From Nostoc punctiforme PCC 73102 (GTDB taxonomy: Bacteria > Cyanobacteriota > Cyanobacteriia > Cyanobacteriales > Nostocaceae), in the NCBI RefSeq assembly GCF_000020025.1, contig NC_010632.1, positions 210,001-242,000 of the forward strand: a stretch of 32,000 nt of DNA, given 5' to 3'. Of the stretch, positions 1,441-31,200 are shown one piece after another. The translations under genes were made by a program, and so were the position numbers. The notes under the pieces were generated by a model, which saw only the letters and a list, made by a program, of their open reading frames with translations, was not told the origin of the DNA and did not search any database. Each line of letters opens with the position of its first letter. Position 1 is the stretch's first letter.

Positions 1441-1441
1441 A

Positions 1442-3713: not shown

Positions 3714-3734
3714 ACAAGAATGTAAGAGGGGAAG

Positions 3735-3801: not shown

Positions 3802-3840
3802 AAAGAGATTGTTTAATAAATAGAAGATACAAGGAAAGAA

Positions 3841-8467: not shown

Positions 8468-8489
8468 TCAACAGTTGTCAATTACACTT

Positions 8490-11170: not shown

Positions 11171-11180
11171 CTACTTATAC

Positions 11181-11213
11181 CAATTCGCAATTCGCAATTC
11201 GCAATTCGCAATT
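11181..11213. repeat. STRR-type tandem heptamer (CAATTCG)x4 plus a partial unit
   Basis: Directly visible: caattcgcaattcgcaattcgcaattcgcaatt, just downstream of the response-regulator stop. Confidence 0.95.
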
Positions 11214-11259
11214 AAGAAACTTAGATGCAGCAAAACTTTCCTAATTTACATCTGTTGCC

Positions 11260-11868
11260 TCATTTTGGAGAATTGGTATTACTCACTTGAATTAAACAAT
11301 AGCCTTGGGTTTTACTCTGCTGTGTTTGACAGGCTTCAATCGCTGCTTGATTCTTCAAGATGATTTGATACATTTGTTTACCCTCTTGGGATTTTGCCCA
11401 CTGGAGAATCTTTATCTCGTTACGTGAGACTACTACTGACTGATTCGTTCCTATATTTTGCACCAGATTCCATGTGGTCAGTGAACCCAGCAAGGTACTG
11501 CCAGCCGCGACTAATCCACACACAAGAGATACTGTCCCCAATCCCCAGCCTGCCTGCACTTTCATGCCTGTGCCGGTGGGCTTGATTTTTTTGATCTCAT
11601 CACGTACAGCATTTGACACAACTGTATAATGCATTGATTCGGCTTGTTTGCTTGTCTTATCCAGTTTTTGGTCTATCAGTGCTGCCCACGCCTCTATCAT
11701 TGCCTCCATTCTTGCCTGGAGGTCTATGATCGTTTCTTCATATCTGCCCAGTGTCGCCATCATCCTAAAAACTGGATCATCTGGTGTAATTCCTAGTTTA
11801 TATGCCCCTTCAACTATGCGTTTTTGTTCTGATGGGGAGTAGCCTTGTAATGTGTCTTGTACTCGCAT
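11260..11868 (-). CDS. Hypothetical protein with a central TM segment (202 aa)
   Basis: Long ORF at the end of the minus-strand block. Hydrophobic stretch GWGLGTVSLVCGLVAAGSTLLGSL. No motif recognised. Confidence 0.55.
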   Translation of the reverse strand: MRVQDTLQGYSPSEQKRIVEGAYKLGITPDDPVFRMMATLGRYEETIIDLQARMEAMIEAWAALIDQKLDKTSKQAESMHYTVVSNAVRDEIKKIKPTGTGMKVQAGWGLGTVSLVCGLVAAGSTLLGSLTTWNLVQNIGTNQSVVVSRNEIKILQWAKSQEGKQMYQIILKNQAAIEACQTQQSKTQGYCLIQVSNTNSPK

Positions 11869-11897
11869 TTCTCACAAGCTCCTTTGCGTTTAATGAT

Positions 11898-12010
11898 GAG
11901 TAATAAGTAATGGGTAATGAGTAAAGAGTAAAGAGTAAGAAGTAATGAGTAAAAAACAAGAAATAAGATATTGAAGTATTCGCTCATAACTCATAACTCA
12001 TAACTCATAA
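11898..12010. repeat. Two opposed heptamer arrays: (RRGTAAD)x8 at 11898-11953 and (CTCATAA)x4 at 11983-12010
   Basis: gagtaat aagtaat gggtaat gagtaaa gagtaaa gagtaag aagtaat gagtaaa ... ctcataa x4. The reverse complement of the second array (GAGTTAT)n differs from the first by about one position per unit, so the two arrays can pair as an imperfect long hairpin. Confidence 0.85.
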
Positions 12011-12054
12011 CTCCTCCATTCGAGGTGTGTTGAGAAATCCGGGTTGTAGTGTCA

Positions 12055-12753
12055 TCAATCAAGCCCTAGATATTTAATAGCCAAATGGTTATTCATCACT
12101 GAATGATGAAACTTTTTAATCCACTGAAAAATGAAGCTTCTCCAAAACAAAATTATTGAGAGATCCTGGCAAACTTGTGAATATGGTTTATCAGCCTTTT
12201 CCATCGCTTGATAATGATTCCGATGTAGAGCCATTAATTCTACTTCTGTCCCTCCTATGATTAACAGCTTTTTCCGCATCTTCTCCTCATATTCTCTAAA
12301 CTCTGGCGCAAAATGGTAATTTTTCACTACCACGTAGTTGGCGTTATTAGTCGCGTTCTGGATGATTGCATTTAAGTAATATATACAGTCTTTCCTGTGA
12401 GAAATAGGTTGAAGAAATGTTAAATTCCAACCAAATTTTACTACAACCTCAAATAAGCTAGCACTCTCGATATATTGAATTACTTTTTCAATATCTTGTC
12501 CGGGCATATCAACAATCATCACATCTAACTCAGGATGATTTAAGTCATCTGTTATTGCATCAGCATCGTCATTTGATAAATTAAACTTCTTAATGGTTGC
12601 TATATGTTCATAAGCCTGAAATACAGGGAATGATTCTTGGTTATAAACCTTTATCCGTTTTCCTTGCTGGGCGAATATTTCTAGCAATAGCTTGATAACT
12701 GTAGACTTACCCACCCGCGCATCTCCTACAGTTATAATCATTCTCTTTGACAT
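12055..12753 (-). CDS. ParA/MinD-superfamily P-loop NTPase (TraL/VirC1-like), 232 aa
   Basis: N-terminal P-loop MIITVGDARVGKSTVIKLL. VMIVDMPG Walker B-like strand. Paralogous to the C-terminal half of the upstream 394-aa protein (…VVKNYHFAPEF… versus …IVKNSFYGEAE…). Starts 8 nt after the upstream stop. Confidence 0.65.
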   Translation of the reverse strand: MSKRMIITVGDARVGKSTVIKLLLEIFAQQGKRIKVYNQESFPVFQAYEHIATIKKFNLSNDDADAITDDLNHPELDVMIVDMPGQDIEKVIQYIESASLFEVVVKFGWNLTFLQPISHRKDCIYYLNAIIQNATNNANYVVVKNYHFAPEFREYEEKMRKKLLIIGGTEVELMALHRNHYQAMEKADKPYSQVCQDLSIILFWRSFIFQWIKKFHHSVMNNHLAIKYLGLD

Positions 12754-12761
12754 CTTTATTC

Positions 12762-13946
12762 CTATTCGGATAAAATCTTCTCTATGCCAAATAAATCTTT
12801 TTTTGGCTTTATTTGCCCTTTAAAATTGTTCAACCAGCTTAAGACTCTACCAAATACAGACGGATATTCATCTTGTTCAAGTCCTTGTCTAAATGTCAAA
12901 TTTTTCACATCTAAATAATCGTAGGATTTTTTCGCTAGTTTTGGCATATTTATACTTGTGAAATCATGCCCTGTTGCTTTTACTTGCTGTTCAATTGCTT
13001 TTATTTCTTTTGAATTATCATAAAAAGCAAATTGTTCCGCCTCTCCGTAAAACGAATTTTTTACTATTATATAATCCACTCGATCACCGCAGAAACTATA
13101 TAGTTCTAGTAGTTGAGTTATACAATCAATTATTGTGCTAATAACTACTACTATCGTCACCCGCATTTTACATTTATTATTTACTACATCTAAAAACCCC
13201 ATCTCGGTTATTAAAATTTTTAAAGTTGGCAGAAATTGTGATGGTGTTTCTAGTAGTATCAAAGATTTTTCCTCTTGATTTTTCCCAGATTCTTTTGATT
13301 TGGGATACACTAATTCTTTTAAATTATCTACAAATTCGTCTAATTTATCTGAGTTAGATATATCTAAACGATGAATATTTGCAGCTTTTTCATAAAATCT
13401 GATCAAGTGTGGATTAGAATTATCCGCGTCTAACCCGACAAAGTTTACTGCGTTATCTATGTAAGTTTGCGCTAAACCTCTGGCAAAGGTTGACTTACCA
13501 ACACCTCCTTTATCTCCTGTCACCATTACTAATCTTCTTAGTTGTTCTGGATTATCTTTATTCTTGTTATTCTTATTATTACTTTCGGATACTGGATTAT
13601 TAGACTGTGTATTAATAGTCTTTTCTTCTATCGTATTGTTAAGTGCTATATTGTCGGTCACTGGGCTGTATAACTCTGTATTACTAGTCTTTTCTTCTAT
13701 CGTATTGTTAAGTGCTATATTGTCGGGTGTTAGGCTGTCTAGCTCTGTATTACTAGTCTTTTCTTCTGTCACATTGTTGGGTGGTACATTGTCGGGTGCT
13801 GTGCTATCGGGATCTGTATTACTAGTGTTTTCTTCTATCGCATTGTTGGGTGCTATATTGTTAAACTGTGTATTAGTAAAGGGTTGATCTGCCAAATTGT
13901 TGCCAGTATTTCGGTTATTATCGTTGGCTATCTTAATAGTCATCAT
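12762..13946 (-). CDS. ParA/MinD-superfamily P-loop NTPase with an N-terminal 23-aa tandem-repeat extension, 394 aa
   Basis: Deviant Walker A VMVTGDKGGVGKSTFARGL. VGLDADNSNPHL. The N-terminal ~125 aa are four 23-aa repeats (NN.IEEKTSNTEL.S...DNIAL) encoded by a 69-bp tandem repeat. Confidence 0.7.
   Translation of the reverse strand: MMTIKIANDNNRNTGNNLADQPFTNTQFNNIAPNNAIEENTSNTDPDSTAPDNVPPNNVTEEKTSNTELDSLTPDNIALNNTIEEKTSNTELYSPVTDNIALNNTIEEKTINTQSNNPVSESNNKNNKNKDNPEQLRRLVMVTGDKGGVGKSTFARGLAQTYIDNAVNFVGLDADNSNPHLIRFYEKAANIHRLDISNSDKLDEFVDNLKELVYPKSKESGKNQEEKSLILLETPSQFLPTLKILITEMGFLDVVNNKCKMRVTIVVVISTIIDCITQLLELYSFCGDRVDYIIVKNSFYGEAEQFAFYDNSKEIKAIEQQVKATGHDFTSINMPKLAKKSYDYLDVKNLTFRQGLEQDEYPSVFGRVLSWLNNFKGQIKPKKDLFGIEKILSE
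13608..13883. repeat. In-frame 69-bp tandem repeat x4 inside the 394-aa gene
   Basis: Units begin with tgtattaMtagtSttttcttct at 13608, 13677, 13746 and 13815, an exact 69-bp period. A partial fifth unit starts near 13868. Confidence 0.9.
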
Positions 13947-13976
13947 TCTTCTTCCTTTTGATATTGACTAATTGTT

Positions 13977-14303
13977 TTACAGATACTGTCTTTGAAATAT
14001 CGGTCGGATTTTAATTCGTACCCAATGCACAAATTTATTAATCAAGTCTGCTTTTACAATCGTCTTCAAGCTATTGATGGCTGTAAAATTTAAAGTTTTT
14101 ATTTTTACTACCTCTTCTTCAATAACTACATAACGTTCTTGACTGTGAATGTTCATCAGTATTACCTTTTCGTTATTTAGTTCTGCTGCAACGACGTTGA
14201 ACACATCTTCGGCAAATATCTCTAGCCCTAATGGGGTAGAGATTACTCGCACCGTGCTACCCAAAGGGTGATCAAATTCCCAATATGTCCATACTCTTCC
14301 CAT
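13977..14303 (-). CDS. Small protein with BRO-N/antirepressor-like pattern (108 aa)
   Basis: STVRVISTPLGLEIFAEDVFNVV ... NKFVHWVRIKIRPIF resembles the BRO-N pattern (vRvv..dG.pwF.a.Dv...L ... Fk.Wv...vlP.i). The resemblance is weak and judged by eye only. Confidence 0.35.
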   Translation of the reverse strand: MGRVWTYWEFDHPLGSTVRVISTPLGLEIFAEDVFNVVAAELNNEKVILMNIHSQERYVVIEEEVVKIKTLNFTAINSLKTIVKADLINKFVHWVRIKIRPIFQRQYL

Positions 14304-14882
14304 AAATAGATTGCCATATTTGATTCAACACACGAAGCTATTTAGGTACTGTTTTTTTCAGTACTATGGTTTCTTGATTTTTCAAAAATACGTTATACAA
14401 TTACTAGCGATTCTTTTTGGTTTTCAAAGGATTGCTGCTATCAACACCAATATTATTCTTTGGCTGATGATAACGGTTGAATGTTAAGCCGATCACCAAC
14501 CTTGATATTGGCAGTGCCTGTTGCTAGCTCTAGCACTTGATTGGCAACTTTCCCCTTGTAGATGGGGCAAGGGTTTTTGTAGCACGGTTTGGCATTGTAA
14601 ACCGCAGTTGTCACCACATTGTCCTTAAGATAAAAGATGTCTAATGGAAAATTTACCTTGTACATCCAAAAAGGCACGTTGTAAATTTCTCCTCCCAGGT
14701 TGAATAACATCCCGCTATCACCGTTTAAGGATGAGCGAAATTTCAGCCCTTTCTCTAATTGCTCTGGTGTAGAGGCGATTGAGAGCTTAAATGTGCGATT
14801 GCCTTTCGTGAGAATGTGCGTAACTGGTAAATCCTGGGGACGAGTTTGGGCGTAACCCAGCGCCACAGTGCCAATGATAATA

Positions 14883-15883
14883 GACTTGTCGGGAAATAAG
14901 AGAGAATAGACAGCAGTGGTAGGGAAGAATGATGCTGAATATTGAAGGTGCGCTGAAGCAAGACCGACTGTTGAGGGCATTAACTGGGTTGAACCGGAAA
15001 GCATTTGATGCCCTTTTGCCCACGTTTACCACGATGTACCTAGATACTCAACAGGCCAAGCCTCGTCAACGTGGCCTGGGTGGAGGACGCAAAGCCCGCT
15101 TACTTACAGCCCAAGACAAATTGTTTTTCATCCTTTTCTATTTCAAATGTTATCCGACCTTTGATGTGGCGGGACTGCTCTTTGATATGCATCGCTCCCA
15201 GGCACATGAGTGGATGCATCGATTGCAGCCAATATTAGAAGCGGCTTTGGGACAGAAGATGGCGCTGCCGGAACGCCATCTCGAAAGCATTGAAGCATTT
15301 TTGTCACGCTTTCCAGGAGTGCAACGAGTGATGATTGATGGGACAGAACGCCCAATTGCGCGACCTCAAGAAAGAGAACAACAACAACAGAATTACTCCG
15401 GTAAAAAGAAACGTCATACGCGTAAACACTTGGCGGCAGTTGATGAAACCAAACGGGTCTTGATCTTAAGCAAAGCACGAGAAGGCAAACTGCATGACAA
15501 ACGTTTTCATGACGAAGATGACATTGCAGGTAGTGTGCCTGATGAAATTCCGATTGAAGTAGACTCGGGCTTTCAGGGATTACAGAAGCAGTATGACAAT
15601 CTCCATCTTCCTCACAAAAAGCCCAAAGGGGGCAAGTTAAGTGACCTTCAAAAAACGGAGAATCGTCAATTGAGTCAATCCCGTGTAGTTTGCGAAAATG
15701 CCTTTGCTGGTGTGAAGCGCTACAACGCCGCCAGTGTCATTTATCGTAATCGGATTGAAAACTTTGATGACCATTTGATGCTGACCGCAGCAGGATTATG
15801 GAACTTCTACTTGATGGCTGCTTAAGAGAATCCCAATTACAAGACCAGCATTGCCTCACTTATCTTTTATTTCCCGACAACTC
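14883..15883 (+). mobile_element. IS5-family-like insertion sequence (~1.0 kb) with imperfect terminal inverted repeats and a TA target duplication
   Basis: IRL is GACTTGTCGGGAAATAAGAGAG (14883-). The reverse complement of the right end is GAGTTGTCGGGAAATAAAAGAT (ending 15883). It is flanked by TA at 14881-14882 and 15884-15885. The interior looks more GC-rich than its surroundings. Confidence 0.8.
14929..15825 (+). CDS. DDE transposase (IS5-family / DDE_Tnp_4, HARBI1-like)
   Basis: N-terminal HTH region LRALTGLNRKAFDALLP ... LLTAQDKLFFILFYFKCYPTFDVAGLLFDMHRSQAHEWMHRL. DDE blocks VMIDGTERPI, YSGKKKRHTRKHL, IEVDSGFQG and ENAFAGVKRY. Confidence 0.85.
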   Translation: MMLNIEGALKQDRLLRALTGLNRKAFDALLPTFTTMYLDTQQAKPRQRGLGGGRKARLLTAQDKLFFILFYFKCYPTFDVAGLLFDMHRSQAHEWMHRLQPILEAALGQKMALPERHLESIEAFLSRFPGVQRVMIDGTERPIARPQEREQQQQNYSGKKKRHTRKHLAAVDETKRVLILSKAREGKLHDKRFHDEDDIAGSVPDEIPIEVDSGFQGLQKQYDNLHLPHKKPKGGKLSDLQKTENRQLSQSRVVCENAFAGVKRYNAASVIYRNRIENFDDHLMLTAAGLWNFYLMAA

Positions 15884-15979
15884 TAATTAATACTCCAGCA
15901 ACAGGGCCTAGTATGTTCAATAACTTGAAAGCAGCAAGGTATAAATCTTTCTCGTTAGGAATTTTAAGAATTTGCATAA

Positions 15980-17602
15980 TTATCCAAAAATATCAACGTT
16001 GCCGAGACTATATATAGATGAATCAATCGGGCTAGATGGAAGGCCATGCAAAGCCGCAATGTTACGCATACTTTCAACTCGGTCAGCTTCACGGATGGCC
16101 AGAGGATTCATACTCTGCCTTGCAGCCAGCAATGCCGACAATGTAATCTCAAGTGATGGCAGTTGTTGCAGGGGAGAAACATCGTCGCCAAACATTTCAC
16201 AGAAAGTAGAGACGGCCGCACGTTCTACAATGGCTTGAATTTCCGCACCCACACATCGCTGCGTGGCTTTGAGTAACCTTTTCCATTCTTCTTCGGTGTA
16301 CCCATCGCCCCCGTTACGAAAACGAGGATCGAATTTAGCGAGATGGATCTTGAAAATTGAGTGGCGTTCGCCGTAATTTGGGAGATCCACCTTGAAAATC
16401 TCGTCGAAGCGTCCGCTTCTGGTTAGCTCTGGTGGTAGCCATTGAATATTGTTAGCCGAAGCGATAATTAAAACCTCACTAGTACGCTCCTGCATCCAAG
16501 TTAAAAGCATTCCCGCTAGTCGTTTTGACAAATCATCATCCCCAGCAAATCCTTTGTCGAAGTCGTCCAAATACAGGATTACACGGTTAATTCGGTCTAC
16601 GAGTGCGAGTAAATTCTTTAGCTTGTACTCAGCCAAATTACCGTAACTGCGGAAACTACCCCACTCCAAAATAATCAGAGGTAGCCCCAATTGTGCAGAA
16701 CTTGCTTTAGCCGAGTACGATTTTCCTGTCCCCGGTGGGCCGATTAGTAAAATCCCCTTGGGTAAACGAAGATTGTAAGCTTTAGCCAATGAGGATAGAA
16801 GGCGCTTATAAGTTTTAAACGCTTGCTGGATAAGTTCTAAACCACCAATGGGTGTGCTTGGAGGTTGGAGAAATTGAATATTATAAATTCGCTTAAACAG
16901 TTCGATTTTGTAAGCGGACAGTTTTTCTACTAACTCGTCCGGTGTAATTTCATGATTTGCGATTGCTTGTCTGATTCCATAGCCAATGTCTGCCAAGTAC
17001 ATACCTATTGAGGCGTTCGCTGTCGCATGAATATCGCTGCGGCTGTAATCAGGTAATACTTGGGCTAAGTAACTGCTTATTTCCTCTATAGCTGGCAGTT
17101 GTTGCACAATGGTAGGAACTTCGGGGGCAATGTCAGATGACACGGTGGCGTTTGACCCTAAGAGAATCGCTGTCTTGTTAGCATTGCAATTGTACAGCTT
17201 TAGGTTAATGAGCGCTGACTTAATCCACTCGGAAGTCAGAAAGAAATCGGGGTCAGTGGTAGACTCTCCCAGCCAGGGGAATATACCTTCTAGTATCAGG
17301 ATTCCTGATAAATCAGTAGTTTTCCAGAATCGGAGAATTTCAAAGTAATGTTCGCGCCTGCTTTTGGCGATTGCTTGATACTGGTCAACTCTTTGTAAAC
17401 TTAATCCCTCCTCATTAGTAGATAACTGCTGTAGTGCATCATCCTCCAGCGTCCACAGGTAACAGTTAATGTCCAGGCGCTGGCATTCACTGGCGAGATT
17501 TGTCAAAAGTTTGACCCTTTCTTGCAATGGAGACTCGACAGCAATCAGCTTATTGTTAAGCTTAATTAATCCAAATATTTGTTTAATTAACTCATTACTC
17601 AT
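15980..17602 (-). CDS. Classical-clade AAA+ ATPase (540 aa), N-terminal region reminiscent of Ycf46-type ATPases
   Basis: Walker A LLIGPPGTGKSYSAK (about 16722-16745). Walker B VILYLDDFDK. Second region of homology IIASANNIQWLPPELTRSGRFDEIFKVDLP. The N-terminal 280 aa (ERVKLLTNLASECQRLDINCYLWTLEDD ... GILILEGIFPWL) resemble the N-domain pattern of cyanobacterial/plastid Ycf46-like ATPases, judged by eye. Confidence 0.8.
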   Translation of the reverse strand: MSNELIKQIFGLIKLNNKLIAVESPLQERVKLLTNLASECQRLDINCYLWTLEDDALQQLSTNEEGLSLQRVDQYQAIAKSRREHYFEILRFWKTTDLSGILILEGIFPWLGESTTDPDFFLTSEWIKSALINLKLYNCNANKTAILLGSNATVSSDIAPEVPTIVQQLPAIEEISSYLAQVLPDYSRSDIHATANASIGMYLADIGYGIRQAIANHEITPDELVEKLSAYKIELFKRIYNIQFLQPPSTPIGGLELIQQAFKTYKRLLSSLAKAYNLRLPKGILLIGPPGTGKSYSAKASSAQLGLPLIILEWGSFRSYGNLAEYKLKNLLALVDRINRVILYLDDFDKGFAGDDDLSKRLAGMLLTWMQERTSEVLIIASANNIQWLPPELTRSGRFDEIFKVDLPNYGERHSIFKIHLAKFDPRFRNGGDGYTEEEWKRLLKATQRCVGAEIQAIVERAAVSTFCEMFGDDVSPLQQLPSLEITLSALLAARQSMNPLAIREADRVESMRNIAALHGLPSSPIDSSIYSLGNVDIFG

Positions 17603-17709: not shown

Positions 17710-19416
17710 CTATAGCTCTAATTCCTCGTGGTTTTGTTGTGAATAACGTTGTTGCAATTGATGGGAAAAAGTGATTAACTGCGTATTCCAATCCCGACTT
17801 TCGCATTTGAGTTGAGTCGAGTGTGGCAGCAGTTCTTTAACAGCCCGTGCCACTGTTGGTTGACTAAAAGCTACCTGTACATAAGGAACATTACGTAATC
17901 TTTCAACAGGTAAATTTGAAGTGTCATCTACTGCCATGTAAACTGTTCTGTTTTCTGGTATTCCTTTAACCTGATATTCCAGCATGGCTACTGAAATGGT
18001 GTCAATGGGAGAGTCAGACAGTACGACAGTACTAGTTTGTTCGCTAGGCTTTTTCCCCAAAGTAAAGTAAAACCAGCTATCACGGCGAACTGTACCTAAC
18101 TCATAACCAGAGAAATTATTAGCTGCCCCTTCTAAAAATGCTCCTTTGGTTTTTCCGTTGAGATCCCGCATCACAAAAACTACATTTGCTTTTGAGTCGG
18201 CATAAACTAGCCCCTGGTTATGTAACATTTGTACGCAATCAGAAGGTATGCCTCGTTTCTGTTTGAGGTAATGTTCAACGACTGACCAGTTAGCTTTATC
18301 CTCAACGGGTAGCGTAAATTGGGGTGCTGGTTGAGTTTGGATAATGTCCGCCGCAACTTTTTGAGCATGAGCGATCGCTGCACGTTGGCCCCCAGCTTCA
18401 CCAAATCTTTCCCCGATCCATGCGATTGCAGTTGTTTGGTTGCATTGATTAACGTGCTTGACTAAATCAATAGCACTGTTACCCGTTAACGAAGAACCAT
18501 TGCCAAAGTCAGTAAATTGAGAGGCATCTATATTAATGATGTGGTTTCCTCCTACCCATTCATTCCCTTTACGCCACAGTCCCAACTCCCAAGCAACATC
18601 ATCTAAAGCTAAATCAGTTGACCATTCGGTAAGTTTTTTTATTGATTGATTATCTTGCTCCAATTGCTCTATCCGCCGCCGTAACTGTTCATTGTCAAGT
18701 GCAAGAGCTTTGGCTGTAGCTTCCATCTCTTCCTTACGCTGATTCGCCCTGTCTCGGTCGGCAGCTTTGGCCTTCAATTGCGCTGCACTTAGCTCATCAA
18801 CTTCTAAATCGCGCCCCTCCTCCACAATCCGGTAAAAGTCTTTGATGTCCTGGTGCTTTGCTCTGCTTCCCTTGATACCGCGCTCTAGTTCAATTAGCCG
18901 CATTGTCTGGTAGTACGAATTCTGAAATTCATGAATTTTCTGCCGCCCGTCAAAGAAATGATTGCACCGTAGCTGTCCCTCATCATCCAAAGGCACAAAA
19001 TAAGCGTGAATATGGGGTGTGGCTTCATCCAGGTGTAACTCGGCGCGGACAATGCGATTGCCATATTCATCCGCTAACCATTGGTGAGTCGCTTCTAGCC
19101 AATCATCCAACTTTTGTGGTTCATAGTAACCGGCTTGGGTGGGGCAGTCGGGACGGAAATAACTGGGCGATGCACTCAACAGTAACTCCACGCAGTACAC
19201 CGCATCAGTGCGAATCTTCCGCTTCTGCTCCGAGTCCCCTATCTTGGCTAAGACTAAATCCTCTAGTCGTTCCTCTGGGTTGAGGCTACCGATGAACCGA
19301 ATATTTTTTTGAGTGGGATCTGCATTAGGGGTTTCTCTTTCTCGTGCAGTGTGAGATGCACTCCCTGATATGTTACCCCGCTTTAATTTTTTTAATCGCG
19401 CGATCGCGTATGCCAT
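17710..19416 (-). CDS. MobV-family (Mob_Pre) relaxase fused to a C-terminal DUF3991/Toprim-like domain
   Basis: N-terminus MAYAIARLKKLKRGNISGSASHTARE carries HxxR at 19342-19353. Motif III LHLDEATPHIHAYFVPL is at 19006-19035. A coiled-coil linker follows. The C-terminal part has NSAIDLVKHV...AIAWIGERFG and a Toprim-like block VVLSDSPIDTISVA (about 17986-18027, with Asp where Glu is usual) plus YMAVDD. Confidence 0.85.
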   Translation of the reverse strand: MAYAIARLKKLKRGNISGSASHTARERETPNADPTQKNIRFIGSLNPEERLEDLVLAKIGDSEQKRKIRTDAVYCVELLLSASPSYFRPDCPTQAGYYEPQKLDDWLEATHQWLADEYGNRIVRAELHLDEATPHIHAYFVPLDDEGQLRCNHFFDGRQKIHEFQNSYYQTMRLIELERGIKGSRAKHQDIKDFYRIVEEGRDLEVDELSAAQLKAKAADRDRANQRKEEMEATAKALALDNEQLRRRIEQLEQDNQSIKKLTEWSTDLALDDVAWELGLWRKGNEWVGGNHIINIDASQFTDFGNGSSLTGNSAIDLVKHVNQCNQTTAIAWIGERFGEAGGQRAAIAHAQKVAADIIQTQPAPQFTLPVEDKANWSVVEHYLKQKRGIPSDCVQMLHNQGLVYADSKANVVFVMRDLNGKTKGAFLEGAANNFSGYELGTVRRDSWFYFTLGKKPSEQTSTVVLSDSPIDTISVAMLEYQVKGIPENRTVYMAVDDTSNLPVERLRNVPYVQVAFSQPTVARAVKELLPHSTQLKCESRDWNTQLITFSHQLQQRYSQQNHEELEL

Positions 19417-19993: not shown

Positions 19994-20063
19994 AAGAAAC
20001 TGGACAAATCGCCTCAAAGCTTTTTGGAGTAAGTTATAGAGGGCAATTTTTCAAAAAAGCGAT

Positions 20064-20205
20064 GTGCAAAATAGCAGACATTTTGTACCTGATTATGAAC
20101 ATTTGATGACAGATATAGCAGTTAAAGGCGTGTATAAGCGGTGCAAAATAGCAGACATTTTGTATATAAATAGGGGTTTTATGTGCAAAATGTCTGCTAT
20201 TTGTA
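20064..20205. repeat. Three copies of a 23-24-bp iteron, two direct and one inverted (candidate centromere or operator)
   Basis: GTGCAAAATAGCAGACATTTTGTA occurs identically at 20064-20087 and 20141-20164. GTGCAAAATGTCTGCTATTTGTA at 20183-20205 has the central heptamer inverted, so it is effectively an inverted copy. The site lies ~300 bp upstream of the RHH-like/ParM-like gene pair. Confidence 0.75.
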
Positions 20206-20503
20206 ACTGTGATTAGTAATACATTTTGACCACGTAAAAGCAAATAAAACCCCGGTAAATTAGTAGGGATTTAAAAAATGAGGGACTAAGTGAAGGATTA
20301 GAAGAAAAAATGCGGTGTTGTATGTGCATTCATTATTAAGTAAATACTTTATTTAGGCAGACAATATAAATTTCAGAAGCCAAAATATTAAATTTAGTTA
20401 AGTTAGGCAGTATCAAAGTAAAAATAAAAAAACTGGGCGATAAAAATTAGTGTAATAATTTTAAGAAAGCGCGTTACGCTAATCAGAATTTTAGTCAAAA
20501 AAA

Positions 20504-22064: not shown

Positions 22065-23702
22065 AGCAATTCTCATTATGAGAATGGTTATCAATATGTT
22101 AAGAGCGAAACTAACCGATGAAGCCTGGGAGACGTTGAGAATTCTGCTGAATGATAAATTTGAACTAGGAGTGGCTACTTCAAACAGATTTTTAGACACA
22201 ATGAACTACCAAGTAATACATGGCAATTCAAGCTAATTCCATGTATTACACGGAGTTGTAAGTATTCTCAAAAAGTAAGATGAATTTTCAGCTTGTGTTG
22301 GGATGAAATTCTAATTCCAGTCCGTGGATCATAAAGTTAAGCAGACTTTCCCAACTATCAAAATAAAGATAACGAGTTAAGGCGCGTAAATCATCAAAGA
22401 AGGTCTTGCGTGTTGGTAAATGCTGGCGGATAAATTGGTATTTCTCATCTATAATGTCAAGTAGAGTATGAAACAGAAATGCAAGGATATTAAAGGTTGC
22501 TAATAGGGAGGATAAATGCGTTTTCCCATGTCCGAAATTATGTTCTAAGTTGTAACCTTTGGTTTTAAGAGTGTTATTATTTTCGTTTTCTATTTTCCAT
22601 CTGCTGCGACCATCTGACACAATCGCCTCAACATTAATATCTGTGATTCGATGATTTGTCGCAAAGGTATTTTTGTAGATTATAGTCCCATCAGAGCGAG
22701 TAATGGCCAATTCACACCAGTTTACTAATAAAGCATCCTCGCTATTCCGTAAAGGAATTTGGTTGACATAACGGTAGGTATAAATCTCATAGACTTTGCC
22801 CTTCCAATGTTTGACACTAAATGTATCAAGGGGCATTCCTTCTAACCATTCATAAAGTGTTTTATGGGATTTAGACCGACACACTAGAATGAAATTTAGT
22901 TTTTCTTGTAGTAATAATTCACATAAAGGTTGATGGCAATAAAGATCATCTCCTAAAATGGTAATACCAAGAGATGCGTACTGTTTGGCATATTTCTGAA
23001 TCCAACGTTTTGCTGCCGCATTCTCACAATCCTGCTTTTGATATCCGTCTTGAGGGACAACAAACTCTGGTATTAACGGGATTACTTGAGAATTACTAGG
23101 ACAAACAATTACTGGTGTCACCACAGTATGAAAATACTGAGTTGTTCCGTTTTTAAAAGTTCTGCTCGAACAGTGTTCACAGTGAATTTCATTGGAGCAA
23201 AAATATTCTGTTCCATCTAGAGCTATCAGCAAATTATTTTTAAAAGAACGAAATTTTGATAAGTGTTTACCATTCTCTAATGCTTTGAAAATCTTGGTAA
23301 ACACCGGAAACACAACGGTTGGTTCTATCTCATCAAGTAAATCTCGGATATGGTTATCGCTTGGAATTTGGTGTACCCCAAACAAGCTTTGAGCATTATT
23401 ATGTCCCTTACTATGTGCCATTGACCTTTGATGGGCAAGAAAAGAAGGACTCTGAGTAAAAAATATGGAGAATGCGCTTAATGCTGCATCACTCATTTGA
23501 TAGCGTTTGTTTTTGCCTGTTCGCTTATCAGGTAAATCTTTCAGGATTGACTGAAAGTATTGTACTATTTCGTCAAAAATTCCTGGCTGATTCAAAAAAG
23601 CTCCTGCGTTCGCGAGTATTGAGATACAAAAACCATACCTTTAACTGAAAATTTTGCATAGATGCTAATGATAGTTATAATCATTCTCATGATGAGAATT
23701 GC
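22065..23702 (-). mobile_element. IS4-like insertion sequence (1638 bp) with ~32-bp imperfect terminal inverted repeats and a 12-bp direct target repeat
   Basis: Left end GCAATTCTCATTATGAGAATGGTTATCAATAT (22066-) versus the reverse complement of the right end GCAATTCTCATCATGAGAATGATTATAACTAT (ending 23702) gives 28/32 identity. The direct repeat TGATAGGATAGC is at 22053-22064 and 23703-23714. Confidence 0.85.
22288..23595 (-). CDS. DDE transposase (IS4-superfamily-like), 435 aa
   Basis: DDE blocks LLIALDGTEYF, ITILGDDLYCHQP and RSRWKIENENNNTLKTKGYNLEHNFGHG. The apparent start is TTG (23593-23595); there is no in-frame ATG between it and the upstream stop at 23641-23643. Confidence 0.85.
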   Translation of the reverse strand: MNQPGIFDEIVQYFQSILKDLPDKRTGKNKRYQMSDAALSAFSIFFTQSPSFLAHQRSMAHSKGHNNAQSLFGVHQIPSDNHIRDLLDEIEPTVVFPVFTKIFKALENGKHLSKFRSFKNNLLIALDGTEYFCSNEIHCEHCSSRTFKNGTTQYFHTVVTPVIVCPSNSQVIPLIPEFVVPQDGYQKQDCENAAAKRWIQKYAKQYASLGITILGDDLYCHQPLCELLLQEKLNFILVCRSKSHKTLYEWLEGMPLDTFSVKHWKGKVYEIYTYRYVNQIPLRNSEDALLVNWCELAITRSDGTIIYKNTFATNHRITDINVEAIVSDGRSRWKIENENNNTLKTKGYNLEHNFGHGKTHLSSLLATFNILAFLFHTLLDIIDEKYQFIRQHLPTRKTFFDDLRALTRYLYFDSWESLLNFMIHGLELEFHPNTS

Positions 23703-25440: not shown

Positions 25441-25971
25441 TTAATATGCTGTGTCCTTGTCGAAAGGCAAACTGTCTTCCGGCTCAAAGTTACGCAGGTC
25501 TTGCTCCATCTGCTGCCGACGTTGGACGTATGTTCTGCTAGCGCCAATCCTTTCTTGCATTTCCTGTTGACCGAAATTGATACCCATTTCAGCGTGTTTG
25601 GCTGATACTCGATTGTAGTTATCGACATCAATTTTCTTACGCCGTTCCATTTCCTCTAACCATCCAAGGCTTTTACCTTTTTTAAGCTCAGATTCAAAGT
25701 ATTCCTGTTTAAGAGAACCGTCAGGGTTAAACTGTGTTTTCTCTGTTGGGGTGAAGAAGTCGTATGCCGTGTAGACAGGCCAAGGTTCTGGGTCGGTTTC
25801 GTCTAGATGTTTCCACTCGTCATATTCTTCTTTCAATCTACGAGCATAGTCATCGACTGCTGCTGGATTTGAGCCAGTAGATATTTTTTGTTGCCTTACT
25901 TCATCTTTTAAGGTTCCATCTGAATTGAATTCTTTACGGTTCATATTTATCCAGCGTTTTATTCTTGACAT
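25441..25971 (-). CDS. Hypothetical charged protein (176 aa) with an internal duplicated motif, divergent from the giant gene
   Basis: EFNSDGTLKDE (aa 14-24) and QFNPDGSLKQE (aa 80-90). Only 48 bp separate its start from ATG 26020 on the other strand. The overlapping track ORF 25404-25631 is out of frame and rejected. Confidence 0.6.
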   Translation of the reverse strand: MSRIKRWINMNRKEFNSDGTLKDEVRQQKISTGSNPAAVDDYARRLKEEYDEWKHLDETDPEPWPVYTAYDFFTPTEKTQFNPDGSLKQEYFESELKKGKSLGWLEEMERRKKIDVDNYNRVSAKHAEMGINFGQQEMQERIGASRTYVQRRQQMEQDLRNFEPEDSLPFDKDTAY

Positions 25972-26019
25972 GATTAATTCCTCACAAGATTGATAAAAAC
26001 TTAACTAACTCCAAGTCTT

Positions 26020-29000
26020 ATGACTCTTGAATTTAAACACTTTGACACGAGAATAAATCAATGGATTCATGATGACGGAGACAAAAATAATCCTGATTCA
26101 ATTTTAACTGAGAAAATAGATAATACCCTATTAGAATCATATTTTCCAGATCAAGAGTTTTCTTTCGGACATATTGATGAATATAGTAAAGCAGAAGATT
26201 TACAAAATCATCCAGAAGGACATATTCTTTTATTATCTTCTAAAACCAGACTCCTCTATGGCTCTCCAGAATGTTTAGAAGTAATTGATAAATTATGTCC
26301 CGATAGAAAAGATAGAGGTGCTTATGGGTCGATTTTCCTAGGTGGTTGTAAAAATTCCATTAATGAAAAATTAAATATTCTAATTGTGAATGATATTACA
26401 GGAGAGAATGGAGGATTTATTAAAGATGAGGATGCTTTCAAGTTAGTGGGCGATTGTTATGGACAGATATCAACTAAACTTTATGACCGTTTGACCCAAA
26501 CAGAGCAACAACAAAATAAAGATTATCATGTTATTCAGCATCGCTTTGGTTGGACAGAAACTGATGGAGAAGATAACCAATATCGTTTTGGCAAAGGGAC
26601 TTTACGACCATATAAGTTAGATAAAGTAGAATATTTAGACCCAAAGATTAAATCCAAAATTGACTTAATCATTCCCATATCCAGTTTTAAAGGTACAGAC
26701 AAGGATAATCCTAATGGTGCTAGTAAACCCCAAATTAAACCAGGACTATATCAGCAAAAAATCTGGTTAGGTGAAAAATCGCAGTCAGAGCGAGGTCAGA
26801 CAGCCATATCACAACTGTTGGCATCATTTCCTCAAGGGATCAAAGATTTCGCTGAGGAGCTAGAGGCACAGGCTCAAAAGCTAGCCGAAAATCAGGATGA
26901 CCCAAGGATTGTTGCACAACTTTATTGTGAAAAATACGAAAAGCGTAAGGCTTTGACTGAATCACAGAAAGCATCTTTATCAAAGCAAATTACTAAGCAA
27001 GCTGGTGATGGCTCATTAGCTAAACAATTAGAACTAGTGACATCGAATGATGCTGATGGAGAATATGAGATAATCGATGAAAATAATGAATCACCGAAAG
27101 ATAATTTGTTGATGTATAAACTCATAAAGGCTGATTTAGTTGGGGGGCATAATCAGCTTTTAGAAACTGAAAAAATTAAACAAGAACTGAGTAGATTTGT
27201 CCAAAGCGAGTGGAGAGATATAGCATCTGGGAGAACTTTAATATTTGACCGAGGAATGATTATCCCATCCAAAGAACTGAAAAATGGTGAAATCTGTGTT
27301 CCTTGGATGGATGATGGAGAAAAGGTTCTTAATTTTCGTTCTCCATTCCTCAACTCTAATGGTTTATGTATATCCACTAATAAACTTGTTGATGATAGAT
27401 TAGCCCCAGATGGGGTAAATCTTAAAGGCATTATAGTAGTCAATGATGAAGATCATAAACGCATTTTAGCAAGGCTTAAGACCAATGAAATTGCGCCAAT
27501 TGAAACCGAATCAGAACGGCAAGCGCGAGATTTTGACGGTGACTGTATTGGCGTGGCGCTGGCTAGTAAATACCCTAACCTGACAGCAGAGGCAGAGCAA
27601 AGAAATCTTCCCAAAAACGCCTATTCGCCCACGGTTAAGCTCAAAAAACAATCATTTTATTTGGAAAATGGAACCCAGCCCCCATTTGAAAAAATCGCTA
27701 TTCACATGAGCGATAGCATCAGCGTGGGCATAATCAACAATCAAGTGACGGCACTGGAGGCATTAGAATCAGAAATTGAAGTACTAAAGACTTACGGTAC
27801 TTTTGAGCAGAAATCAAATTATCTAGACCAAGTTTCTAACCATTACGAAACCCTGTTTGAGCAAGAACGCCAGAAAGATCCAAAGTTAATTCGAGAAGAA
27901 TACAAGCCTTATATGCAAGGAGTTGTTGAAATTGCTCATTCTCAAAGAACTCCCGAAATTATCCAGCAAGCGATGGACATTAACCGTCAAATGTACCGGA
28001 GCATGATTGAAGAAGGATGTTATCAAAACCAAATAGCGGTTGATTTATTCAAAAGTGCTAAAAAACCTGAGATGGATAAAATCCGGGAAAACAGCCGCTA
28101 CTTGTATCGTGATGTTAATTATATTAAAGATAAAAAGTCGCCTTCAGTTTATCTAAACACGGGGATAACACCAAAGGGCTACTCACCAGTAGAATTATTA
28201 ATTAGCCAAACCAATAAATATTTCCAAGAATCACAGTTAGAATCGCGTCCCATAGTTCAGTTTAAAGACTTGTTCAAAGGGGTAGAATTTACACCACAGC
28301 AAAAATTTGCAGCGATCGCCGCGAAGTACGAGTTCGATCTGAAATTCAACGCTGCGGTTCGTGCCTCAAGGCGGCGAGAAACAGAGTCTGGCCCTAGCGC
28401 AGTTGTTCAAACGGATTCAGGAACGCAACTCGAAATTACCAATCTCACCCGTTACGGGCATCCCTTAATCTGGAAAGCCCAGACACTTAATATTCGCCTA
28501 GATGAGATTAAATTCACAAACAGTGAACGCCCCCATAAATTATTAGCAGTTGCACAGATAGATGGTGAGATTGGGGAAAATGGAAAACCCGCCTACCGCA
28601 ACCTGGGGACAGTTAGCCAACAATCTGTGACTGACCACAACCTCAAATCGGGGATGACCATGCAGGGAGCTAAACTCCTAGAACTAAAACCAGAACTTAC
28701 TAGAAGCCAAACTAAATTACTTTTCGACAAGGCACAAGAGGCGGCTCTCGCATTTTACGCTTCTATCCCAGAGTCAGAAAAACTTGCATCCGCCGCCGCC
28801 GCTTGGAATATCTGTGCATCCCGCCAGGATGAACTCGAAGTTGCACGTAAAGAAAACGCAAACCCCCAGGCGATCGCTAAAAAAGTCTCCAATTTTGCTT
28901 TCGCTGCTTTCCCCAATGAGATTATCTCCCGCTTGGAGAAACTGCAATTTAGCGAACCGAAGTTAGTCACACTTAATAATGAAGCAAATCAATTTTTGGG

Positions 29001-31200
29001 CAGAAAGTGGAACCCAGAGGAAAAACACCCCATAGAAATCAGAGCTAGCCACCACCCACCGGGACATGAACGCCACGTTTCCAGACTAATGTTTGTCCAG
29101 GATGCTGACGGCGAATATAAGGAATTCGCCATGCTCGAAACCAGGGGCGGAATGTTACCAATTGGCTCAAAGGCGCAAGCTAATTTCATTGGGGTAGAAC
29201 CTGCTACTGCCAAATCTTCTATTGGACTGCCAGGAAACGAGTCGGTTGAAATTACTATCCGTGAACTCAAGAACTTCTCTTATGCAGGACTTGTTTTTAA
29301 CGCCGAACCCGTAAACTTAGAATTTGGCACTGTGCCGATTCCTGATAAAACAGTAAAAATCAAAATTGATGCTTTGACTCTGGGGGAGTTAGACAGTGAT
29401 TCTGTCCAACAGTTAAAACAAATTGATTACCTGAAAAATGGTAATCCTCTAAAGTTAAAACTTACTTCTATCTCCGAAACTGGAGATCAAGCTTTTGTCC
29501 TGGGTGAATCTCCTAATGGGAATCTCCTCAAAATTAATAAAATTAACTTTTATGATTTTTCTGGTCAGACATTCGATGATTTGGATTACCGAAAACTGAC
29601 TATCCAAACCTCAGCTTCTAAAACCAGAGATGCCGTATTTTTAAATGGTGAACCCTTGGGGGTATTACACTTCAAAAAAGACAAAGACGCGCTCAGACAG
29701 CTTGGGCTACTCAAACCCAAACAAGTTACACCCGCGCCTGCAATCATTGAAAGTAATTTTTCTGTTATTTGCGCTCAAATTGACCCTAATACCGTCGAAT
29801 ATCCCCAGAAATGGACGAAGGAATTTCAGGCTTTTGGGACTCAATCAGTTAATTTTGAACAACAAGAGATGATTGAGAGTAGTGCGAATATTCTACATCA
29901 TATTAAAGAGCGCCCTACTTTCTTATTTTCGACAGAATCAAACAAAAAACTTGGAGTCATGGGCTTGGCTGTTGACAACCAGAAAGTTGATACTGTAACT
30001 AAATGGTTAACTGCTCAAAATGTTAAATTCTCGCTTGCCCCAACAGAAGATGTTATAAGGGAAACTAAAAAAGGTCTAGCGGTATTTAACTTGGTTGATA
30101 GCTCCATTCCTGCCAAAACTTTAGAGAGCATGGCCAAGAAATTTGGGGCTGTGATTGAAACGGATAGTGAGTATCAACAAAGAGTTAATTCCCTCGCCAC
30201 ACGACCGCAGTTTTTGAAACCTCCATCTCAATCAGCATTGTTCCCACCTCAACAAAGCGCTCAATTCCACCCAAACCAAGAGGTTCAAAATATCGCCCCT
30301 CCTGTCATCAAAGGCAAACCGATTCCGATGAACTACCCTTTAATGATGCATGGCGACACTAATCCAATACTAGTAGATACTTGCATTGATGCGATGAGAG
30401 GATATGGTCGAACTCATACCACCAGAGCTTATCAACCATACAAACAGTATGGGTTTAAGGAAGGTGATATTGCTCTGGCGACAGGCATTGATAAGCAAGT
30501 TGCCTTTCGAGTCGGTAAGCAGTATCAAATCACACCCTCTATGATTGCTGACCCCGTTTATCAACAGCAGTGGGCTGATATGGAAAAGCACTCACCCAAA
30601 GCATTACCAGAACTGTTTACCGAAAAACAGCAGGTGTGGGGACTACATATTGAACCCTTGGGGGATTATGTGGAGGGTTTTATAGTCCCGTTTCCTGAAC
30701 CACAAAATAGAGCCGCACTTGAAGCAACAGTCCAAACTCAATCAGTTACTATTGATGACTTGAGAAATTGGTACAATGCCGCAGATAAGTTAGGGAAGTC
30801 GGAGAATTACAAAAAACGCATTGTAGAAGTGGCCAATCAGTTTAAAGCTGGTGAGCAATTGTCAGCCGAAGCGTTGACAGTAATGAATAAAGATAAATTT
30901 GAACTTGAAGCCATCAGTCGGTTGACTCAAATTGCTCAAAGGATTGGCATGGTTTGGGGTAAGTCTGATGAAAATGGTACTAAAGTCCAAGGGAAAATTT
31001 ATGACTTGGCTTTCAATACCCAGCAGAGGGATTTAACTATTTTGCAGAAAAATGGGGAAGTAGTTTTAAACTTACAATCTGGCAAGGTGCAGACTAATAA
31101 AGTAACTCCACAGATATTGCAAACTTTTGAGGATGCTAATACTCAAATTGATCAAATATTAGCTAAATCTCAAACACAAAAAACAGACTTACAAAGATAG
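26020..31200 (+). CDS. Giant (1726 aa) protein with an N-terminal two-barrel (DPBB) RNA polymerase core of the RdRP/QDE-1/YonO type, plus a long C-terminal extension
   Basis: Collinear signature blocks: VIQHRFGW and YRFGKGTLRP (aa 171-197, nt ~26530-26610); IIPISSFKG (aa 217-225); VLNFRSPFLNSNGLCI (aa 436-451, nt ~27325-); IIVVND (aa 471-476); metal-binding RDFDGDCIGV with DFDGD at aa 504-508, nt 27529-27543; SVGIINNQV (aa 568-576); QIAVDLFKSAKKP (aa 671-683, nt ~28030-28068). These map onto the conserved blocks of eukaryotic-type RdRPs (Q.R.gG.KG; S..KF; RnP.lhpgD; DxDGD; lG.i.n.h; AVDf.KtG). Confidence 0.65.
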   Translation: MTLEFKHFDTRINQWIHDDGDKNNPDSILTEKIDNTLLESYFPDQEFSFGHIDEYSKAEDLQNHPEGHILLLSSKTRLLYGSPECLEVIDKLCPDRKDRGAYGSIFLGGCKNSINEKLNILIVNDITGENGGFIKDEDAFKLVGDCYGQISTKLYDRLTQTEQQQNKDYHVIQHRFGWTETDGEDNQYRFGKGTLRPYKLDKVEYLDPKIKSKIDLIIPISSFKGTDKDNPNGASKPQIKPGLYQQKIWLGEKSQSERGQTAISQLLASFPQGIKDFAEELEAQAQKLAENQDDPRIVAQLYCEKYEKRKALTESQKASLSKQITKQAGDGSLAKQLELVTSNDADGEYEIIDENNESPKDNLLMYKLIKADLVGGHNQLLETEKIKQELSRFVQSEWRDIASGRTLIFDRGMIIPSKELKNGEICVPWMDDGEKVLNFRSPFLNSNGLCISTNKLVDDRLAPDGVNLKGIIVVNDEDHKRILARLKTNEIAPIETESERQARDFDGDCIGVALASKYPNLTAEAEQRNLPKNAYSPTVKLKKQSFYLENGTQPPFEKIAIHMSDSISVGIINNQVTALEALESEIEVLKTYGTFEQKSNYLDQVSNHYETLFEQERQKDPKLIREEYKPYMQGVVEIAHSQRTPEIIQQAMDINRQMYRSMIEEGCYQNQIAVDLFKSAKKPEMDKIRENSRYLYRDVNYIKDKKSPSVYLNTGITPKGYSPVELLISQTNKYFQESQLESRPIVQFKDLFKGVEFTPQQKFAAIAAKYEFDLKFNAAVRASRRRETESGPSAVVQTDSGTQLEITNLTRYGHPLIWKAQTLNIRLDEIKFTNSERPHKLLAVAQIDGEIGENGKPAYRNLGTVSQQSVTDHNLKSGMTMQGAKLLELKPELTRSQTKLLFDKAQEAALAFYASIPESEKLASAAAAWNICASRQDELEVARKENANPQAIAKKVSNFAFAAFPNEIISRLEKLQFSEPKLVTLNNEANQFLGRKWNPEEKHPIEIRASHHPPGHERHVSRLMFVQDADGEYKEFAMLETRGGMLPIGSKAQANFIGVEPATAKSSIGLPGNESVEITIRELKNFSYAGLVFNAEPVNLEFGTVPIPDKTVKIKIDALTLGELDSDSVQQLKQIDYLKNGNPLKLKLTSISETGDQAFVLGESPNGNLLKINKINFYDFSGQTFDDLDYRKLTIQTSASKTRDAVFLNGEPLGVLHFKKDKDALRQLGLLKPKQVTPAPAIIESNFSVICAQIDPNTVEYPQKWTKEFQAFGTQSVNFEQQEMIESSANILHHIKERPTFLFSTESNKKLGVMGLAVDNQKVDTVTKWLTAQNVKFSLAPTEDVIRETKKGLAVFNLVDSSIPAKTLESMAKKFGAVIETDSEYQQRVNSLATRPQFLKPPSQSALFPPQQSAQFHPNQEVQNIAPPVIKGKPIPMNYPLMMHGDTNPILVDTCIDAMRGYGRTHTTRAYQPYKQYGFKEGDIALATGIDKQVAFRVGKQYQITPSMIADPVYQQQWADMEKHSPKALPELFTEKQQVWGLHIEPLGDYVEGFIVPFPEPQNRAALEATVQTQSVTIDDLRNWYNAADKLGKSENYKKRIVEVANQFKAGEQLSAEALTVMNKDKFELEAISRLTQIAQRIGMVWGKSDENGTKVQGKIYDLAFNTQQRDLTILQKNGEVVLNLQSGKVQTNKVTPQILQTFEDANTQIDQILAKSQTQKTDLQR

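Follow-up and report, generated by a model that had tools for sequence, protein, structure and literature searches.

The 32,000-nt stretch of Nostoc punctiforme PCC 73102 analysed here (contig NC_010632.1, positions 210,001–242,000; referred to as the window) contains a single uninterrupted open reading frame (ORF) with an ATG start at 26020–31200 on the + strand, which encodes a protein of 1726 amino acids (aa). Full-length homologs of 1724–1737 aa with 78–93% sequence identity are found on Nostoc plasmids. The gene is laid out as a polymerase core, a conserved extension, a variable cassette and a C-terminal domain, and it is separated by a short spacer from a divergent small gene, referred to as the partner gene. 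The modelled structure of the first 800 residues (26020–28419, + strand) supports their assignment as a single-chain two-barrel RNA polymerase (RNAP) module, resembling RNA-dependent RNA polymerases (RdRPs) from eukaryotes as well as YonO of the Bacillus prophage SPbeta. A preliminary description of the gene, made by reading the sequence, had proposed such a core from eight short motifs, and all eight were located at the residues it gave: QHRFG (from residue 173), RFGKGTL (189), SSFKG (221), FRSPFLNSNGL (439), IIVVND (471), DFDGD (504–508; nt 27529–27543), VGIINNQ (569) and AVDLFKSAKKP (673).

An AlphaFold2 model of aa 1–820, based on a 56-sequence alignment, has a mean predicted local distance difference test score (pLDDT) of 90 and a predicted template modelling score (pTM) of 0.86. 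Searching this model against the PDB with Foldseek gave twelve best matches that were all chains of QDE-1 from Neurospora or RDR2 from plants (E 5e-9 to 1.3e-7, probability 1.00, 800–940 aligned columns, template modelling (TM) score 0.39–0.44), followed by the Pol IV largest subunit NRPD1, bacterial beta-prime and Rpb1. The top matches in a library of predicted viral structures were phage proteins that bear the name RNA-dependent RNA polymerase (E 2e-12, TM 0.48). Next came proteins of crAss-like phages, which the preliminary description had suggested as structural relatives, with gp66 of Cellulophaga phage phi14:2 at E 0.059. The QDE-1/YonO-like core with a DFDGD metal loop is thus borne out by the model, which finds its structural counterparts among the double-psi beta-barrel polymerases.

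The DSSP string of the model contains two blocks of six strands. The first (aa ~145–262; 26452–26805, + strand) is beta-subunit-like and has strands at 147–151, 172–178, 189–198, 216–219, 242–255 and 259–262. It holds D145, Q173/R175, K192-G193-T194 and S-S-F-K224-G225. The second block (aa ~408–514; 27241–27561, + strand) is beta-prime-like, with strands at 408–417, 424–426, 435–439, 450–454, 471–475 and 509–514 and a pLDDT of ~94, and carries F-R440-S-P442 together with the metal loop. The DFDGD loop (27529–27543, + strand), in which D504, D506 and D508 are the predicted Mg-binding catalytic triad given their invariance among homologs, directly precedes the last strand of this block. The double-psi topology and the residue equivalences given below were read from the Foldseek matches, the DSSP string and the order of the motifs.

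Eight residues are invariant in all two-barrel RNAPs, in QDE-1 numbering D709, R738, K743, R962, P964, D1007, D1009 and D1011, and the R-x-P pair R962/P964 corresponds to R446/P448 of Rpb1 (PMC2919709). R440-x-P442 and D504-x-D506-x-D508 of the Nostoc protein match the R-x-P and D-x-D-x-D of this set. D145 and R175 are 30 residues apart, as compared to 29 for D709 and R738 of QDE-1, and two further invariant basic residues of the beta-like barrel, K192 and K224, are candidate equivalents of the QDE-1 basic residues. The 'NRAPTLHRLGI ... DFDGDQMAV' segment of E. coli beta-prime would be collinear with 'NFRSPFLNSNGL ... DFDGDCIGV' of the Nostoc protein.

Conservation was counted in the 56-sequence homolog alignment, in which identity to the query goes down to 24%. 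Invariant in all 56 sequences are Y102, Q173, R175, K192, G193, K224, G225 and G242 on the side of the first barrel, and L420, R440, P442, D504, D506, G507, D508, K543, K678 and S679 further on, while D145 is kept in 55 of the 56. As the invariant residues coincide with the motifs of the preliminary description, these motifs reflect selection and not chance. An exhaustive profile search with aa 1–800 gave 251 representatives when clustered at 50% identity (123 of them below E 1e-30), and D-x-D-G-D, in most cases DFDGD or DYDGD, is shared by practically all representatives covering this region. We infer a catalytically intact polymerase of the eukaryotic-RdRP/YonO lineage, for which nucleotidyl transfer is predicted.

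Sugar selectivity is not readable from the present data, and the archaeal PolD is a two-barrel DNA polymerase (PMC7281927). The Nostoc protein might be a DNA polymerase like PolD, or a degenerate or purely structural two-barrel protein, and this copy does carry N124 (nt 26389–26391) in place of the Asp found in 53 of 56 relatives (IVNDITGENGG, as compared to the consensus VVDDxTGENGG). Conservation of the catalytic residues across a family as diverged as the 251 clusters speaks against degeneration, however, and PolD chains are absent from the top 50 PDB matches, in which RdRPs and RNAP large subunits are present. We consider a protein that does not function as an RNAP very improbable.

The family is large, unannotated and located on cyanobacterial plasmids. 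A Pfam scan of the whole protein gave only two sub-threshold chance matches, and the Pfam RdRP family PF05183, against which the preliminary description had proposed a profile search, was absent even at E ≤ 1. Scans of the whole protein against NCBIfam and PHROGs gave no match, and no relevant match was found among PDB sequences with phmmer or with a 25-sequence family profile. A word-indexed search returned 320 relatives; the best 120 are all labelled hypothetical protein, come from Nostoc and related genera, are in many cases plasmid-borne and have no precomputed Pfam domain. In every database searched, the family is labelled either hypothetical or, wrongly, ribonuclease H. The close homologs P0031, P0042 and P0080 from Nostoc flagelliforme CCNUN1 plasmids bear the submitter name 'Ribonuclease HI'. 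We rejected this name for P0031, which has no Pfam RNase H match and for which the name looks like annotation carry-over; a genuine RNase_H domain was found in one of 20 distant members.

Like QDE-1 and RDR2, the Nostoc module is a single polypeptide with two beta-barrels and one predicted active site, composed of the D-x-D-G-D loop, R-x-P, and candidate Asp and basic residues from the other barrel. These two enzymes are its best structural matches over essentially the whole 800 aa. Unlike them, the Nostoc protein is bacterial and plasmid-borne, has ~900 extra residues, lacks RNA interference (RNAi) partners nearby, shows only ~10–12% identity and has no match to PF05183. A TM score of only ~0.4 also shows that the proteins have diverged considerably beyond the core.

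YonO, a DNA-dependent RNAP, transcribes phage genes (Forrest et al. 2017, PMC5467207). It shares with the Nostoc protein a bacterial, mobile-element-borne, single-chain two-barrel architecture and the collinear motifs KG-x-L-x-P ... S-x-F-K, R-S-P, D-x-D-G-D and I-G-x-I-x-N. A profile-profile comparison with the YonO family gave only E 0.0035 and a probability of 9%, yet the catalytic motifs were aligned, with FRSP paired to LRSP, DFDGD to DNDGD, VGIINN to IGEISNN, and R440/P442 to R492/P494 of YonO. The barrel-1 segment alone, compared using hhalign, paired KGTLRP...SSFK with KGLLVP...SQFK (E 0.015); when the family was compared to YonO as a single sequence, the same tool returned nothing relevant. 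In contrast to the phage-encoded YonO of ~840 aa, the 1726-aa plasmid protein has a swappable cassette and a conserved partner, and while some YonO homologs match PF05183, members of the Nostoc family do not.

The remainder of the protein (aa 780–1726) was modelled separately with a pLDDT of 84.8 and a pTM of 0.44, the individual domains being well predicted and their mutual arrangement uncertain. A beta-rich extension (aa ~801–1410; 28420–30249, + strand), delimited by an iterated search of the family, has pLDDT values of mostly 83–95. According to jackhmmer in the collected family, aa ~780–1150 accompany the polymerase in nearly all members and aa 1150–1410 in many. Foldseek gave only weak hints of OB/SH3-like folds for the extension (ModE Di-Mop, ribosomal L2 and Teb1).

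The extension is followed by an ASCH/PUA-like cassette (aa ~1424–1559; 30289–30696, + strand), identified by its Foldseek match to E. coli YqfB (9kyf/9kyh; probability 1.00, TM 0.62–0.64, root mean square deviation 3.2–3.5, ~98 columns, E 8e-3). YqfB is the sole convincing PDB match for aa 780–1726. It gives support at the level of fold to the PUA/ASCH-like segment of the preliminary description, although Pfam ASCH was not matched in the scan of the whole protein. This region is the least conserved stretch among close homologs. The cassette is a putative RNA-binding or RNA-modifying domain, as judged from the modelled fold.

The conserved C-terminal domain (aa ~1561–1726; 30700–31200, + strand) is modelled as helices, a five-strand meander and a long terminal helix with a pLDDT of ~90. 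Proteins whose architecture is otherwise different (P0122, P0123, P0126, P0127, P0134 and P0171) have these ~165 residues at their very C-terminus as well. The preliminary description had also reported a terminal module common to two other proteins of the window, but this did not hold. When the window was searched by tblastn, both the full protein and aa 1381–1726 found only their own gene, a 126-sequence hidden Markov model (HMM) of aa 1556–1726 run against all six-frame ORFs of the window had a best foreign E of 0.21, and Smith-Waterman comparison with 12 window proteins, using shuffling, gave z < 1 throughout. The protein ends in ..KTDLQR, which differs from the ..EELEL and ..QELEL tails of the MobV relaxase and the DUF3854 protein of the window.

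Among 20 long relatives, the Pfam domains found were cpYpsA-SLOG (4), DUF4326 (3), NADAR (2), a RecD-like helicase (2), the RNase H-type domains RVT_3 (2) and RNase_H (1), and PrimPol with PriCT_2 (1). The cpYpsA SLOG domain occupies the ASCH slot in at least two other members, and cpYpsA is the only domain for which the slot was mapped. Members of the family are thus built from a polymerase and extension that stay constant, a cassette that can be exchanged and a tail that is conserved. As a giant protein of a type IV secretion system (T4SS) plasmid, with a constant module and with enzymatic domains that vary among relatives, the Nostoc protein resembles the polyvalent proteins of conjugative elements (Iyer et al. 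2017). The Nostoc protein likewise has several distinct domains that are shuffled among relatives, and T4SS and relaxase genes lie alongside it in the window and on Nostoc plasmid pNLP1. The survey of polyvalent proteins, in contrast, lists only Toprim and PrimPol primases and N4-like RNAPs, and includes no two-barrel or YonO-type polymerase and no ASCH, NADAR or SLOG domain (PMC5512222).

NADAR, SLOG and DUF4326 domains are typical of conflict systems. Together with an ASCH cassette that resembles YqfB, an RNA-nucleoside-modifying enzyme, and with QDE-1 and RDR2 as the closest solved structures, their presence in relatives would suit a true RdRP that copies RNA into double-stranded RNA (dsRNA) or antisense RNA, used in plasmid–plasmid or plasmid–phage conflict or in the control of copy number. 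The fold, however, cannot tell templates apart, and QDE-1 itself has both DNA- and RNA-dependent activity (PMC9508822). Among bacterial relatives, the one that has been characterised, YonO, depends on DNA (PMC5467207), a pathway for RNA amplification is not known from bacteria (PMC2919709), and the window holds no linked gene of the Dicer, Argonaute or dsRNA-handling kind. RNA-templated synthesis as the role of the Nostoc protein seems to us quite unlikely.

The partner gene (25441–25971, - strand) encodes 176 aa and is an orphan family recognised by its conserved synteny. It was present in 78 of 81 related loci in the genome collection, always divergent and 18–62 nt from the polymerase start, and its homologs form 294 clusters, all from Nostocales. 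Neither a Pfam domain nor any other known domain was detected in the partner family, and no DNA-binding domain was found. The partner carries a duplicated F-N-x-D-G-[ST]-L-K motif, and its C-terminal 'QEMQERIGASRTYVQRR' stretch looks helix-turn-helix-like by sequence reading. Nostoc-type partners are not recognisable beside distant members of the polymerase family, where the small upstream genes encode unrelated acidic proteins; those at the loci L083, L084 and L086 are small and very acidic, e.g., '..LSEGYADGDDFDDE..' and '..LSEGLADTDDLETYE..'. The neighbor at locus L085 contains a 'YPNGTMREG' motif that resembles the repeat of the partner.

The AT-rich spacer between the two divergent start codons is 48 nt long (25972–26019) and holds the complement of the partner's Shine-Dalgarno sequence (ATTCCTC), as seen from the sequence and from an alignment of 79 loci. 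Since it is too short for two separate promoters, the 5' transcripts of the two genes probably overlap.

A near-constant, possibly helix-turn-helix-containing partner could be the specificity or regulatory factor of a promoter-specific, DNA-dependent plasmid transcriptase which, in the style of YonO, would express a set of genes of the resident plasmid in its established host and have no part in transfer or priming. The presence of the gene on non-mobilizable plasmids and its linkage to ParM, as for a backbone function (both described below), also fit such an enzyme, although the partner has no detectable DNA-binding domain and cannot be recognised beside distant members. The analysis turned up no candidate for a promoter motif, a promoter and terminator scan of the window stayed at background level, and the fusions to RNase H, PrimPol and helicase domains suit priming better than transcription. 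A resident transcriptase is a serious rival in view of the ParM and partner linkage, the non-mobilizable carriers and the Toprim-type candidate primase already on the plasmid, and we regard it as possible, if rather doubtful.

With megablast the gene was found on 21 PLSDB plasmids. A tblastn search with a distant family member extended this to 87 PLSDB plasmids, which all belong to cyanobacteria, of several orders; 41 of them are typed as conjugative and 16 as mobilizable (57 together) and 30 as non-mobilizable. The carriers are thus cyanobacterial plasmids rather than phages or prophages, and 50,697 phage records searched by tblastn with the core contained no relative. A search for related loci with an alignment of closer homologs likewise yielded only near relatives from cyanobacteria. 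Counted over the 52 loci that have 9 kb or more of sequence upstream, the partner was present in 51, ParM in 49 and MobV within 10 kb upstream in 28. The polymerase gene belongs to the backbone of cyanobacterial plasmids and adjoins the ParM partition genes.

The neighborhoods of distant members differ from this arrangement. L084 from Calothrix sp. PCC 7103 (KB217481.1, 916–17911) encodes a 2636-aa member with a cpYpsA cassette that directly follows PrimPol-PriCT2, three clamp-loader-type genes and a PolA-type DNA polymerase. ParAB is also close by, and this neighborhood has the look of a replication module carried by a plasmid. L089 from Gloeothece citriformis PCC 7424 (pP742402, 7458–17418) encodes a 2805-aa member annotated as ribonuclease H, with ssb ~1.1 kb upstream on the same strand, and its plasmid is typed as conjugative MOBP/MPF_T. 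Other neighbors of distant members include topoisomerase IA, a fragment of a type IV coupling protein (T4CP), ParA and toxin–antitoxin pairs.

The gene is present in roughly one copy per plasmid, multi-plasmid strains having several diverged copies, and it adjoins partition genes. Together with the fusions to RNase H, PrimPol-PriCT2 and helicase domains and with the PolA, clamp-loader and PrimPol genes beside the Calothrix member, this would fit a vegetative primer synthase that transcribes the plasmid origin to give an R-loop or primer of the ColE1 type, with RNase H or ASCH domains processing the RNA. Against this, a replication-gene neighborhood was seen at one locus only and no origin was identified near the gene. 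Moreover, pNLP1 carries separately annotated CyRepA1-family replication proteins, which means that a dedicated initiator already exists. We judge a ColE1-type function unlikely. The polymerase as the initiator of plasmid replication was down-weighted as well, on account of the annotated CyRepA1 genes.

The window is syntenic with pNLP1, which is typed as conjugative, MOBV and MPF_T. It contains the gene for a T4CP (1385–3181, window annotation), next to it a gene for a 1369-aa Toprim-type DUF3854 protein (4358–8467, + strand), genes for a TraL/ParA-like ATPase and an AAA ATPase, and mobV (17710–19416, - strand), which encodes a MobV (Mob_Pre) relaxase fused to DUF3991. Upstream of mobV, a repeat finder and a hairpin scan located an inverted repeat (20146–20202) with arms of 25 nt (20146–20170 and 20178–20202) and a loop of 7 nt, which may be the origin of transfer (oriT). 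Direct-repeat copies are present at 20062–20088 and 20139–20164, the 24-nt copies being at 20064–20087 and 20141–20164, and a second inverted repeat of 14 nt is found at 20173–20186 and 20240–20253. No RNA family of Rfam was found in the window.

The oriT-like repeat sits between mobV and a + strand block whose last gene is that of the polymerase; past the repeat follow orf20504, a ParM/StbA-type gene (pNLP1 annotation), two small ORFs and the polymerase gene. The seven listed ORFs from the repeat to the end of the polymerase gene all lie on the + strand and point away from it, except for the partner and a transposase ORF (22288–23595, DDE_Tnp_1, - strand), which lies between ParM and orf24164 and has no counterpart there in pNLP1. 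The placement of the gene across the repeat from mobV, in a plasmid with T4SS and T4CP genes, agrees with the context described in the preliminary description. Leading-region genes of other plasmids show an orientation bias, and the position and orientation of the polymerase gene are as described for such regions (PMC11541004).

Three further features of the transfer-gene side were seen. MobV and the DUF3854 protein have near-identical tails (..NHEELEL and ..NSQELEL), and the product of orf8475 (8475–9272, + strand) closes with ..DGPELD; a tail of this kind could be common to these proteins for recognition by the T4SS. The interval 3159–4248 between the T4CP and DUF3854 genes contains a 184-aa fragment of a MobA/VirD2-like relaxase and an ORF for a '23S rRNA intervening sequence protein', at a position where pNLP1 has a single 489-nt hypothetical gene. 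A second transposase ORF (14929–15825, + strand; DDE_Tnp_4 with HTH_Tnp_4) overlaps the start of a DUF192 gene by 76 nt.

Our preferred reading, to which we give a probability of about 50%, is that the protein is an intact two-barrel RNAP that makes RNA on plasmid DNA, most likely while this DNA is single-stranded or has just entered the cell. One barrel would supply the D504-x-D506-G-D508 magnesium loop and R440-x-P442, and the other D145, R175, K192 and K224. The RNA made on this DNA would then serve as primers for synthesis of the complementary strand and/or as early transcripts that do not depend on the host polymerase. The side of the oriT-like repeat on which the gene lies, away from mobV and the T4SS genes, would be expected to enter the recipient first. 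Action on single-stranded DNA (ssDNA) or newly entered DNA is favored by this position, by the DNA-templated activity of YonO (PMC5467207) and of QDE-1 (PMC9508822), by the RNase H, PrimPol and helicase fusions and by the ssb and replication-gene neighbors. The template, the timing, the activity and any transfer of the protein are thus predictions from fold, conservation and gene context.

Virion RNAPs that are injected together with phage DNA, such as the two-barrel gp66 of the crAss-like phage phi14:2 and the T7-like vRNAP of N4, offer a functional analogy. Like them, the plasmid protein would, under the preferred reading, be a large multidomain polymerase of a mobile element acting on newly arrived DNA. 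In contrast, gp66 is a structural match only at E 0.059, as given above, N4 vRNAP has an unrelated fold, and delivery of the plasmid protein to recipients is conjecture. Another parallel may be drawn with the transferred primases of the Sog and TraC class, which act on the transferred strand (PMC5512222).

Several points weigh against this reading. The polymerase assignment has no match in Pfam (including RdRP PF05183), NCBIfam, PHROGs or PDB sequences behind it, the profile-profile similarity to YonO is weak, and the double-psi topology and residue equivalences derive from Foldseek, DSSP and motif order; enzymatic activity is likewise a prediction for every member of the family. As to the role, the gene is more tightly linked to the partner (51/52) and ParM (49/52) than to MobV (28/52), and since 30 of the 87 carriers are non-mobilizable, general plasmid maintenance fits at least as well. 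The DUF3854 Toprim-type protein beside the T4CP is a candidate conjugative primase already present on the plasmid, and NADAR, SLOG and DUF4326 cassettes do not point to priming. The side of the repeat that carries the gene is thus only a candidate leading region.

The link between RdRPs and YonO and the two-barrel superfamily have already been published (PMC2919709; PMC5467207), and relatives of RdRPs in caudoviruses and transposons appear in later work (PMC7824862). 'YonO-like proteins in cyanobacteria' were noted by PSI-BLAST (Ruprich-Robert & Thuriaux 2010, PMC2919709), so that the present case is not the first report of this enzyme class in cyanobacteria, and the group noted in 2010 is probably the present family. 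These papers locate the cyanobacterial proteins in 'main genomes' and regard what they do as an enigma. In the literature we found no description of four features: the confinement to plasmids, the modular build of a giant protein in which one cassette can be swapped, the near-constant small divergent partner (78 of 81 loci) and the position across an oriT-like repeat from mobV.

The family represents an annotation gap of at least 251 clusters at 50% identity with an intact predicted RNAP active site, whose carriers include 87 sequenced cyanobacterial plasmids. Being compact, formed by one chain and native to Nostoc, the polymerase could be developed into an orthogonal tool for expression. In the current view, host RNAP that starts from ssDNA promoters and primases of the Toprim or PrimPol type account for early expression and for priming on transferred DNA, and a survey of leading regions mentions only the host RNA polymerase (PMC11541004); a plasmid-encoded two-barrel polymerase that acts there would, if true, add a new player. 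As the nearest solved relatives are the eukaryotic RNAi polymerases, the family also bears on the origin of that lineage. We tentatively suggest, as a broader proposal that we hold to be less probable than its opposite, that an RdRP-like plasmid polymerase works on plasmid ssDNA at entry or replication independently of the host, as a conjugative counterpart of the injected phage RNAPs, and that cyanobacterial plasmids may be a reservoir of the lineage ancestral to the eukaryotic RdRPs.

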